From the IMG/VR virus record IMGVR_UViG_2509276064_000002, positions 1 to 64,000 of that record: a stretch of DNA of 64,000 bases; one strand, 5' to 3'. Below the pieces are notes generated by a model. It made no database searches, was not told where the DNA came from, and saw only the letters and a program-made list of their open reading frames with translations. Below are positions 9,599 to 11,723 of this stretch, piece by piece (position 1 is the stretch's first letter; each line of letters opens with the position of its first letter). The position numbers and the translations under genes are program-made. Source of the DNA: a virus (Duplodnaviria > Caudoviricetes).

Positions 9599-10387
9599 AT
9601 GACCAATCAAATACCCCTACCCGAACACCCGAAGCTTAAAGATCCAACCGTCAAGACGGTGGCCTTCGAAATGACATTCGTTAGTAAACAATCTGCAGAA
9701 CAGGTTGTGTCTGAAATACAGAGGGCACTTAGCGCTGAATACCCAAAGATGGCGCAAAGATGGGGACATAAAGTAGAAGCTTCCTTCGATCCCGAAGATC
9801 CTTCTACGCCTCAGTTCACAGCCTCTATTGCGACTCCTCCTCCTAACGAACCTCAGTTCAAATTCTACAGCGACCAACATCAGCGAGAAGTACAGGTTGG
9901 GGAAGCATTTTTACAATTCTTGCTTGCGGGAGAATATCCTGGTTGGTCAGCCTTCTTGGTATACCTTAAAAAAATTCTCAGTCTCCACCATCAAGCAGCT
10001 GAAACGATTGGATATACTTCTTTTAAATTAATTTATGTCAATCGAATAGATTGGTTTCCAGGAGCGGAGGAGAAAATCCTTGAGGCTTGGACATTGCCTG
10101 TCCCTCCTCCATTATCCGATTCGGTTCAAGTGGATTCCAGACAGCAGCGGATCGTTATACAGTTCCCTGATGGAGATCAGGAGATAACTATTACTGCTCC
10201 AGGCGTAGATGATGAAGAACCTAGCAGACCTGTAATTCAGCTGGATATCGATCATCACATTGACTTCGATAAACCAGAACGGGCTCTACCGGACAACCTA
10301 CTTGCTTGGCTTGAAATTGCACACGAACGGATACACCAAACATTTCGCTGTGCTCTACGACCAGATTTCTTGGAGGCAATATCATGA
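9599..10387 (+). CDS. TIGR04255-like protein
   Basis: PKLKDPTVKTVAFEMTF...FKFYSD...EVQVG...YPGWSAF...FKLIYVNRI pattern recalled for TIGR04255; low GC; GTG 9587 is an alternative start. Confidence 0.7.
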   Translation: MTNQIPLPEHPKLKDPTVKTVAFEMTFVSKQSAEQVVSEIQRALSAEYPKMAQRWGHKVEASFDPEDPSTPQFTASIATPPPNEPQFKFYSDQHQREVQVGEAFLQFLLAGEYPGWSAFLVYLKKILSLHHQAAETIGYTSFKLIYVNRIDWFPGAEEKILEAWTLPVPPPLSDSVQVDSRQQRIVIQFPDGDQEITITAPGVDDEEPSRPVIQLDIDHHIDFDKPERALPDNLLAWLEIAHERIHQTFRCALRPDFLEAIS

Positions 10388-11208
10388 CACGCAGCTATCA
10401 TGATTGGTCAGTCGTTAGCAATCGAGATGTTGTTCAAGGGATGGAATCAAATCGGCAATCAAGTAACAGAAAAGCCACAGGGACTCCGGTTAATATCCCT
10501 CTCAAGGGCAAACTAGGTCGTATTATCTTTAGAGGTAGCACAAATCCCACAGCCGACGCAATGGCCTTAGCTCTCAGGCTTGAGCAAGCTACACCACGAG
10601 TAATGATTGCAAAAGACGCAACCTGGGCACCTCATGTGTCATCAAAATCTCTAGATACTCGAAGTCGACTCTCTGAACCTAAGGTACGTGTAGCCGTGAT
10701 GTATGGGAGCGCCATGAGAAGCGACTCGGGTACATATACTGAGTTTAATATTCGAGTTGGCAGGGTAACAGAAAAGCGTTCTCCAGATTTAGCAGCGCTA
10801 GCCGAAGCACGTCGAAGGCAGGACCAAGCCAAGAAAGAACAAGCTCGTGAAATCATTGAACAGTCTTCATGGGGGCGTCCTTGCAAGGCCTTATATTTTG
10901 AACTAGGAGAACAACAGTCTTCTAAATTAATCGCTCTAATCCACTCCAACCACTTAGCCAACACAGAACTTACATACGCCCTAGAAGCAGCCGGCCAGTT
11001 TCACTCAACAAAACTAGTACGGTCTCTTTTGACTCCCTTCTTAACGCATGAAAAACCATATGTTCGCGAAGGCGCAGTATACGGACTTGGACAGCATCGC
11101 GGGGTACCAGAAATTCGCGAAATCCTTCAAAAGCAACACGCCCAGGAGACAAGCCCTGGTGTTCGTGAGGCCATTGAGGATGTTCTGGAAGGCGACTCTG
11201 ACGATTAA
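10384..11208 (+). CDS. Protein with disordered N-half and C-terminal HEAT repeats
   Basis: LTPFLTHEKPYVREGAVYGLG and ETSPGVREAIEDVL HEAT motifs; ATGA-coupled to the upstream gene. Confidence 0.75.
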   Translation: MTRSYHDWSVVSNRDVVQGMESNRQSSNRKATGTPVNIPLKGKLGRIIFRGSTNPTADAMALALRLEQATPRVMIAKDATWAPHVSSKSLDTRSRLSEPKVRVAVMYGSAMRSDSGTYTEFNIRVGRVTEKRSPDLAALAEARRRQDQAKKEQAREIIEQSSWGRPCKALYFELGEQQSSKLIALIHSNHLANTELTYALEAAGQFHSTKLVRSLLTPFLTHEKPYVREGAVYGLGQHRGVPEIREILQKQHAQETSPGVREAIEDVLEGDSDD

Positions 11209-11723
11209 TGACTGCCACCTCCGCCGTATTTCGTGTCATAGATCGCAAATCATGTCCTGAGGAGACCACCCCAGCTGAACTGGCAGAGTTGGTTTTTAAG
11301 GATCGTTATGGACATTACAATAACTTGTCAGTCTATCTGGTTAGCAAAGAGGACGACCTAATACTTCAGATTGCCGCTGAACACCATGCCAAGGCTCCTC
11401 TTATGCCAAGCAATAGAGCTTTGGTCGATATATCTGACTTATTTAACGAAGAATGTCTACACTCACCCGATGAAAACTGCCCCTTCTCTTTGTGGAATCA
11501 AGCGCACCATGAAATAATGTTTGCAGATACGGCACAAGCCGTTTTGCCATCGGCCTCTCTACTTTGTCCCATACTAAAAAATAGATGGGTGGGCATCAGG
11601 GAAAAGCCGATGAAGCAATATGCTCGTACAAGATGGGCTAATAGAGATCCGGAGTGGCTGCAAGCGTGCACAAATCCAAAAGTGGCAGAATGGGCTGCCT
11701 TACAGCCCAAACTATCACCATAG
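11208..11723 (+). CDS. Hypothetical protein, possible ADP-ribosyltransferase/RES-like toxin
   Basis: VFRVI (R9) ... NLSVYL (S41) ... AHHEI pattern; TAATG-coupled to the upstream gene. Confidence 0.6.
   Translation: MTATSAVFRVIDRKSCPEETTPAELAELVFKDRYGHYNNLSVYLVSKEDDLILQIAAEHHAKAPLMPSNRALVDISDLFNEECLHSPDENCPFSLWNQAHHEIMFADTAQAVLPSASLLCPILKNRWVGIREKPMKQYARTRWANRDPEWLQACTNPKVAEWAALQPKLSP

Follow-up and report, generated by a model that had tools for sequence, protein, structure and literature searches.

A TIGR04255–HEAT–ADP-ribosyltransferase-like gene trio in a prophage cargo slot: a candidate tripartite toxin–antitoxin-like module

The first 64,000 nucleotides (positions 1 to 64,000) of the IMG/VR virus record IMGVR_UViG_2509276064_000002 (Duplodnaviria; Caudoviricetes) make up the stretch analysed here, called the window. 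At 9599–11723 of the window, three overlapping genes of low GC content fill a slot between two hairpins in a prophage (Table 1). The question that this locus raises is what such a cargo does: whether it is a poison together with its antidote, a tool of the prophage, or an operon of ordinary metabolism. We propose that the trio is a tripartite toxin–antitoxin (TA)-like module, in which gene 3 would encode an ADP-ribosyltransferase (ART)-fold toxin, gene 2 a HEAT-repeat antitoxin, and gene 1 an accessory protein of the TIGR04255 family, and that it probably serves abortive-infection defence or maintenance of the element. We lean towards this reading with a confidence that is slightly above even. 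It is based on the predicted fold of gene 3, on the partner of a gene 3 homologue in the same genus, and on the conservation of the trio in other genomes.

Gene 3 and its ART-like fold

An exhaustive phmmer search with the gene 3 protein revealed 90 representative clusters at the 50% identity level (E ≤ 1e-3). Because all of them are 128–235 amino acids (aa) in length and no fused forms occur, the family can be regarded as real and stand-alone. Its neighbours in the ESM Atlas are all annotated as 'hypothetical protein' and come from several phyla; in the window's phylum, gene 3 is sporadic (6 of 364 genomes). No family was found for it in Pfam, NCBIfam, PADLOC or PHROGs, the 81 aligned family members have no meaningful Pfam match and none that is common to them, and the family profile finds nothing among PDB sequences. 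A k-mer-based protein search returned the query itself only. A tblastn search against plasmids and phages, which covered 50,697 phage genomes, and pattern scans (alignment A1) of IMG/VR and genome contigs gave nothing.

In the alignment of the 81 sequences, S41, E58, F93, H100 and W150 are conserved in 100% of the members, and R9 (98%), E149 (96%), D147 (95%), Y43 and H59 (both 94%), E102 (93%) and R13 (89%) are nearly so. The initial annotation, made from the sequence without database searches, had singled out R9, S41 and an AHHEI motif containing H100 and E102, and all of these are indeed among the most conserved positions; E58–H59 is a further conserved pair that was not named there. With V at the position of E102, the homologue at L088:3748-4329 raises the question of which of the two glutamates, E58 or E102, is the catalytic one; alternatively, some copies may be inactive.

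The AlphaFold2 (AF2) model of gene 3, built from the family alignment, has a predicted local distance difference test score (pLDDT) of 93.9 and a predicted template modelling score (pTM) of 0.88. The N-terminal half of the model consists of a strand at 5–11 (with R9), a helix at 22–30, a strand at 40–46 (with S41 and Y43) and a helix at 49–62 (with E58 and H59). These are followed by strands at 70–74 and 83–85, a short helix at 94–99 and a strand at 100–103 (with H100 and E102), and the protein ends with a helix at 109–126, a strand at 127–130 and C-terminal helices. This order of elements is the order of the ART core (strand 1–helix–strand 2–helix–strands 3 to 6).

A VIA-align search of 48,161 PDB representatives, which is independent of Foldseek, placed what we take to be members of the ART superfamily in approximately 28 of the top 31 rows (Z 2.8–4.2). 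These matches include Tse2, the Xre-RES toxin, the VPA0770 toxin, Agrobacterium 6b, the SdeA mART, TreX and Tne2; several DarT structures, Tpt1, EcPltA, AvrPphF-ORF2 and CopC; and heat-labile toxin (LT), Scabin, Arr, pertussis toxin, MbcT, TreTu, ParT and HopU1. When the 844 best chains of Foldseek were re-aligned with VIA-align, 32 had Z ≥ 2. The list comprises 30 entries, 29 of which are cholera, LT or pertussis toxins, Scabin, pierisin, TreX/TreTu, DarT1, OspC3 or CC0527, with Z ranging from 2.3 to 4.4; the best single match is CC0527 (Z 4.4, 103/114 residues). Although the Z values are weak, we accept that the modelled gene 3 protein has a divergent ART-like fold, since a common arrangement met by chance would not pick out one superfamily so consistently. 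The suggestion of the initial annotation that gene 3 is ART/RES-like can be kept as far as the fold is concerned, whereas no sequence relation to RES or to the Pfam ART families was found.

In R-S-E ARTs, the catalytic triad lies on strands 1, 2 and 5. In the gene 3 model, R9, S41/Y43 and H100/E102 are located on strands 1, 2 and 5, respectively, and E58 is located on the helix after strand 2. The alignments with LT and cholera toxin begin at residue 4 of the toxin chain and residue 6 of the model; if this start is ungapped, R9 would lie opposite Arg7 of the toxins. E58 might be an alternative catalytic glutamate.

Two known domains were considered for gene 3 and rejected. The first is the RES domain: hhalign of the gene 3 family against a profile of 30 RES sequences gives a probability of 0.2%, and PF08808 misses gene 3. 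This Pfam family has no match in the window's genome and is present in 45 of the 125 same-family genomes searched. The second is AbiJ_NTD4 (PF18863), which has been reported to be fused to HEAT repeats (Anantharaman et al. 2013, PMC3710099); one family member matches it weakly (E 0.079), and hhalign against seven such domains gives a probability of 0.35%.

The HEAT protein, the Panacea link and TIGR04255

A gene 3 homologue with a different partner was found in the same genus (L018:5118-6654, G008:C1). It belongs to the family with an hhalign probability of 99.3%, and it is overlapped by an upstream gene for a 293-aa protein; a TIGR04255 gene is not present there. Residues 27–118 of the 293-aa protein match SocA_Panacea (E 4.2e-10; 41 bits, where the cut-off is 25.7). 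The C-terminal end of this protein is similar to the gene 2 HEAT core (hhalign probability 52%), with which it can be aligned in alignment A6. Experiments have established Panacea as an antitoxin domain with dozens of toxin families as its partners (PMC8832971), and it can also accompany, as an accessory domain, another domain that does the neutralising (PMC8832971, PMC10440598). The Panacea–HEAT pairing is the best available evidence that gene 3 may be a toxin and that the HEAT core may be the module which neutralises it. This pairing further suggests an equivalence of position between TIGR04255 (in trans) and Panacea (in cis).

Gene 2 itself has no match to PF13274 (Panacea) in the Pfam search. 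Residues 198–268 match HEAT_2 with E 9.1e-6 and 26.3 bits, slightly short of the gathering score (27.7), and its homologues have precomputed HEAT_2 matches. HEAT repeats had been noted in the initial annotation. Comparison of 15 gene 2 homologues indicated that the part shared by them is the C-terminal core only, which spans about 115 aa and contains the motifs VREGAVYGL and SPGVREA. Their N-terminal part ranges from almost nil to about 160 aa, has no common motif and cannot be aligned; its composition in gene 2 alone is not decisive on disorder. Judging by these alignments, gene 2 is a two-part protein, in which the N-terminal region evolves fast and the HEAT core is conserved. It is probably an antitoxin or adaptor, and the role of antitoxin, proposed for it from the beginning, is the best reading since, in the same genus, a Panacea–HEAT fusion is the partner of a gene 3 relative.

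Gene 1 matches NCBIfam TIGR04255 over model positions 1–251 of 252 (E 3.2e-28, 99.2 bits, cut-off 30). The MTN start is kept in L001 and L002. According to a genome search, the family is present in a single copy in the window's genome; it is sporadic in the window's phylum, where 24 of 364 genomes have it. No sequence match of gene 1 was found in Pfam, PADLOC, PHROG or PDB. The AF2 model based on 28 family members (pLDDT 92.8, pTM 0.87) contains two consecutive repeats, each a sheet plus a long helix, in agreement with the two-fold TIGR04255 pattern seen earlier in the sequence. The best Foldseek matches are TATA-binding proteins (TBPs; E 6e-4 to 1e-2, TM 0.25–0.46) and S-adenosylmethionine decarboxylase (AdoMetDC). 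VIA-align gives the McsB kinase domain (Z 8.1, 181 aa aligned), AdoMetDC (Z 7.7), arginine kinases (Z 6.6–7.2, about 190 aligned) and TBP (Z 6.2, 165 aligned), as well as many single-repeat matches of the helix-grip, KA1 and BamC types. The model thus appears to be a two-repeat pseudo-dimer of the TBP/AdoMetDC/guanidino-kinase-like kind. The earlier proposal that gene 1 is SecB-like does not agree with this: there is no Pfam match to SecB at E ≤ 1, and the top matches across both repeats are TBP, AdoMetDC and McsB/arginine kinases. SecB is in neither the Foldseek nor the VIA-align list, although absence from a list does not exclude a fold.

The likeness of gene 1 to nucleotide-using enzymes (McsB and arginine kinase) raises the possibility that gene 1 is itself the effector, genes 2 and 3 being its regulators or a second, independent module. 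TIGR04255 is the constant gene of several operon classes. At 10 loci in the window's phylum (L019, L020, L022-L025, L029, L032, L039, L042), the next gene encodes one of a set of related proteins, each about 232 aa long, which have a helix-turn-helix (HTH) in the centre and weak HTH_17, HTH_3 and Xre-like-antitoxin matches; a third gene of 234–270 aa is sometimes present. HTH is a typical antitoxin feature. However, in alignment A5 of TIGR04255 proteins, only Y113 and D216 are nearly invariant, and a kinase-type motif set is not seen; the gene 3 homologue in L018 is paired with the Panacea–HEAT protein without TIGR04255; and the variable last genes of these operons include bona fide toxin domains (HEPN and, in the model of gene 3, the ART-like fold). 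We consider a toxic gene 1 unlikely and continue to regard gene 3 as the candidate toxin.

The other operon classes are varied. At five loci (L026-L028, L030, L033), TIGR04255 is followed by a 167-aa protein and then by a protein of 135–172 aa. The last protein has a weak partial hhalign match (35%) to the N-terminal half of gene 3, and the middle one does not resemble gene 2 (hhalign 0.1–0.2%). When partner proteins of these other classes were compared with PADLOC and NCBIfam, the weak match of the 167-aa protein to the PADLOC candidate PDC-M32A (E 8.2e-5) was the only one found. At L021:538-2229, the order is TIGR04255, an uncharacterised 192-aa protein, and a protein of 130 aa with a HEPN domain (E 4.2e-6); L038 has a relative of this last protein. 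As judged from its domains, this class is a parallel trio in which a putative RNase-type toxin replaces the ART-fold protein. L035 is a singleton TIGR04255 class. TIGR04255 is therefore the lead gene of modular operons with varied downstream genes. A wider generalisation, which we put forward tentatively and with somewhat less than even confidence, is that TIGR04255 could be the common third component of a very large class of tripartite TA/anti-phage modules, a non-SecB sensor or stabiliser gating interchangeable toxins (ART-fold, HEPN and others) through fast-evolving two-part adaptors, here the HEAT protein, with Panacea as its in-cis equivalent.

Conservation of the trio and comparison with known systems

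The same gene order, in most cases with overlapping stop and start codons, recurs in 14 loci for which the flanks are long enough: the window itself, six metagenomic contigs (L001, L002, L005, L006, L084, L088), four other genomes of the window's phylum (L014-L017) and the NCBI assemblies L083 (GCA_016853205.1), L086 (GCA_965191095.1) and L087 (GCA_016209605.1, a metagenome-assembled genome of Planctomycetota). The first genes of these loci are TIGR04255-like by NCBIfam, hhalign or hmmsearch, and two contigs that are truncated, L003 and L004, fit this layout as well. Since the trio is conserved in other genomes, its arrangement is not due to chance.

The contexts of the trio are often those of defence genes. 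L006 has an MmeI-type restriction–modification gene, an AAA_5 (McrB-like) pair, DUF433 and Abi_C nearby; in L083, the trio is located in an integrase/DUF3987 island with HsdM and RlaP genes; in L087, it is accompanied by a DISARM-like set (PLDc_2, MZB, helicase and MmeI-type methylase), and in L088 by PemK and two VapBC pairs. The three-gene operon of the initial annotation is a genuine mobile module, conserved across genomes and located in defence, TA or prophage contexts. In PADLOC v2.0.0, none of the three window proteins matched a family at E ≤ 1.

A cassette carried by a prophage might also serve the prophage. Gene 3 would then modify a protein or nucleic acid of the host or of a phage (for superinfection exclusion, take-over or anti-defence), and genes 1 and 2 would be specificity or regulatory partners and not an antidote. 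Phage ARTs such as T4 Alt and Mod modify host or phage targets. ARTs are widespread in phages (PMC9503650), and the moron slot of the window adjoins the lysis cassette and another moron with a pilin-like domain. Most other copies of the cassette, however, are located in defence/TA islands or an integrase element and not in recognisable phages, no match was found in the 50,697 phage genomes, in IMG/VR (pattern search) or among the BFVD structures, and the pairing with a Panacea antitoxin argues for a self-poison that requires neutralisation. We find this explanation improbable, as much so as a toxic gene 1.

Slightly less probable still is a non-toxic gene 3, which would be an enzyme or binding protein processing NAD/ADP-ribose or RNA ends (Tpt1-like or DUF952/CC0527-like) in a housekeeping or stress operon. 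The best single structural match, CC0527, is a protein of unknown function, Tpt1 2'-phosphotransferases are among the gene 3 matches, and one trio (L086) stands among ordinary genes. The sporadic distribution (6 of 364 genomes), the foreign composition, the mobile and defence contexts and the Panacea pairing speak against such a role.

When the poison–antidote reading is compared with known systems, the closest in logic are the toxin–antitoxin–chaperone (TAC) modules, of which CmdTAC is an ART-based defence system whose effector is an mRNA ADP-ribosyltransferase (PMC11618068). Like CmdTAC, the window module has three co-transcribed genes, a last gene for a predicted ART-fold effector, an antitoxin candidate with a long additional variable region, a third protein that would be neither toxin nor antitoxin, and a defence-island and prophage context. 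In contrast to it, gene 1 belongs to TIGR04255 and is predicted to have a 262-aa, TBP-like two-repeat fold, with no SecB among its listed structural matches. The antitoxin candidate is a HEAT-repeat protein whose extension is N-terminal and whose C-terminus is the conserved HEAT core, whereas the TAC description (10.1101/2024.02.24.581848) gives the antitoxins a C-terminal ChAD tail. The proposed order of the window module is accessory–antitoxin–toxin, and no relation of gene 3 to known ART families can be detected by sequence. Because gene 1 does not match SecB in Pfam or in the structural lists, the system does not appear to be a member of the TAC/CmdTAC family; of the analogy drawn in the initial annotation, the logic can be retained, the SecB-like member is not supported, and a genuine TAC system of the CmdTAC kind is very improbable here.

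The second group for comparison is PanA–PanT. In G008, the gene 3 homologue is located directly behind a Panacea-domain protein, which is the standard layout, and PanA–PanT systems too have an accessory domain beside a separate neutralising domain. Unlike PanA, gene 2 of the window has no Panacea domain, and a separate TIGR04255 gene is located upstream instead. The word 'HEAT' does not occur in PMC8832971 or PMC10440598.

Among the top structural neighbours of gene 3 (Z 3–4.2) are Xre-RES, MbcT, ParT, DarT, Tse2, Tne2 and TreX, which are small single-domain toxins neutralised by an adjacently encoded cognate protein. Gene 3 differs from them in having no sequence or profile similarity to them, in its motif set (R, S-x-Y, E-H, H-x-E), in a C-terminal D-x-E-W helix region, and in its partner, which is a HEAT protein and not Xre, ParS or a macrodomain. 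A survey of NAD/ADP-ribose functions in viruses (PMC9503650) contains no HEAT- or TBP-linked ART context. The weak likeness of the 167-aa class in related genomes to PDC-M32A indicates that part of the wider TIGR04255 cassette group may already be listed as a defence candidate; in contrast to PDC-M32, the three window proteins have no PADLOC match, and the HEAT and gene 3 families are distinct from the 167-aa class.

A number of findings weigh against the proposed module. The gene 3 model resembles ART structures only weakly (Z ≤ 4.4, rmsd approximately 4 Å), with Z values below those that the tool regards as safe, and Foldseek found nothing for gene 3 at E ≤ 0.001 in PDB or BFVD. Gene 3 has no profile-level likeness to any Pfam, NCBIfam, PADLOC or PDB entry, and the RES comparison described above was negative. 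The catalytic assignment of its residues is one that we infer from the model, and some homologues have another residue at a motif position: E58 is Q in L018, and E102 is V in L088. For gene 2, the HEAT_2 score falls slightly below the Pfam threshold. The trio of L086 is found among ordinary chromosomal genes, and the two-gene form, TIGR04255 with the HTH protein only, is ill explained if TIGR04255 is an accessory component.

The mechanism that we propose can be described as follows. The module would be carried as a moron in the hairpin-bounded cargo slot of the prophage. Gene 3 would be the effector, a small divergent ART-fold enzyme with R9, S41/Y43, E58/H59 and H100/E102 as its key residues, which would use NAD+ to modify a macromolecule or would destroy NAD+, and so would stop growth. 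The HEAT core of gene 2 would bind and neutralise gene 3, and the fast-evolving N-terminal part would connect gene 2 to gene 1. Gene 1 would either control the stability or activity of the antitoxin or sense a trigger; its functional place would be that of SecB in TAC systems or of the Panacea domain in PanA, without kinship to either. The module would then provide abortive-infection-type defence of the lysogen against other phages and/or stabilise the element.

The logic of toxin, antitoxin and third component is already known. The components of the trio are undescribed: gene 3 has no Pfam or PADLOC model, and a search of the literature, which covered roughly 8.4 million texts, found no mention of TIGR04255. 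What is new here is the putative HEAT antitoxin, the putative gene 3 toxin family and the Panacea link. If the proposal is true, gene 3 represents a new ART-fold toxin family of about 90 clusters (at 50% identity) from several phyla, and the HEAT core is a new kind of antitoxin module for the TA/defence repertoire. TIGR04255, annotated as 'function unknown', would become tractable as an accessory protein with swappable toxins. The trio of TIGR04255, HEAT and toxin, set against the pair of Panacea–HEAT and toxin, would be a natural contrast for the role of the third component in TA-based immunity.

The operon and its slot in the prophage

The junction of genes 1 and 2 is ATGA, with an overlap of 4 nucleotides (nt), and that of genes 2 and 3 is TAATG, with a 1-nt overlap. 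Overlapping stop/start junctions are a usual sign of translational coupling. The GC content of the trio is 46.4%, against 62.2% in the left flank (7000–9200) and 63.5% in the right flank (12700–16000), so the three-gene operon is foreign by its composition. Both the coupling and the low GC content had been described in the initial annotation, and the open reading frames (ORFs), overlaps and GC values agree with it.

Table 1. Genes of the trio and borders of its slot (positions in the window)
Feature	Position	Strand	Description
Gene 1	9599–10387	+	TIGR04255-family protein, 262 aa from ATG; GTG upstream at 9587
Gene 2	10384–11208	+	274 aa; variable N-terminal part (~1–150), HEAT-repeat core (~160–270)
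Gene 3	11208–11723	+	171 aa; founder of an unannotated family, predicted divergent ART-like fold
Left slot border	9223–9264		GC-rich hairpin, repeat family D5
Right slot border	11786–11827		GC-rich hairpin with flanking A/T runs; terminator-like site, both strands

The window contains four copies of repeat family D5: the two slot borders and copies at 600–641 and 1644–1685. The right border copy is 93% identical to the sister-element copy, and a terminator scan found terminator-like sites on both strands at 11796–11826. Region 1–641 of the sister element can be aligned to 8609–9264 with 76–78% identity, and the same hairpins, at 600–641 and 1644–1685, enclose a different ORF there (819–1613, 264 aa, with internal 41-nt repeats). 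The swappable cargo slot, proposed earlier, is therefore real, and the prophage slot exchanges such cargo. Window 1–7500 is a sister copy of the prophage end that has diverged and lost some parts; its segments 1–641, 2486–2899 and 3533–3687 are 74–87% identical to 8609–9264, 13108–13516 and 13718–15568, respectively. A small HTH_3 (Xre/cI-type) protein is encoded at 7794–8033 on the minus strand (E 1.8e-10), where the sister remnant meets the prophage.

A phage late region, with a GH19-like endolysin (13844–14719) and a 2569-aa ORF of tape-measure size, occupies the minus strand of the window from about 13,000 onwards to its end, and the slot of the trio adjoins the lysis cassette of the prophage. 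ARAGORN found no intact tRNA in the 64-kb window.

A consensus scan found no promoter upstream of gene 1, and its sole match is inside this gene. A terminator-like hairpin with a T-run is located at 9555–9578 on the plus strand, about 20 nt upstream of the gene 1 start. This can be explained either by a read-through/attenuation element or by chance, given that six terminator-like sites were found against 3.4 expected. Immediately to the right of the slot, 11834–12670 (minus strand) encodes a protein of 278 aa whose C-terminal part is a PilA4 pilin domain (E 4e-9). This gene is flanked by a 25-nt match between 1676–1700 and 12683–12707, which suggests that it, too, is an insertion relative to the sister element.

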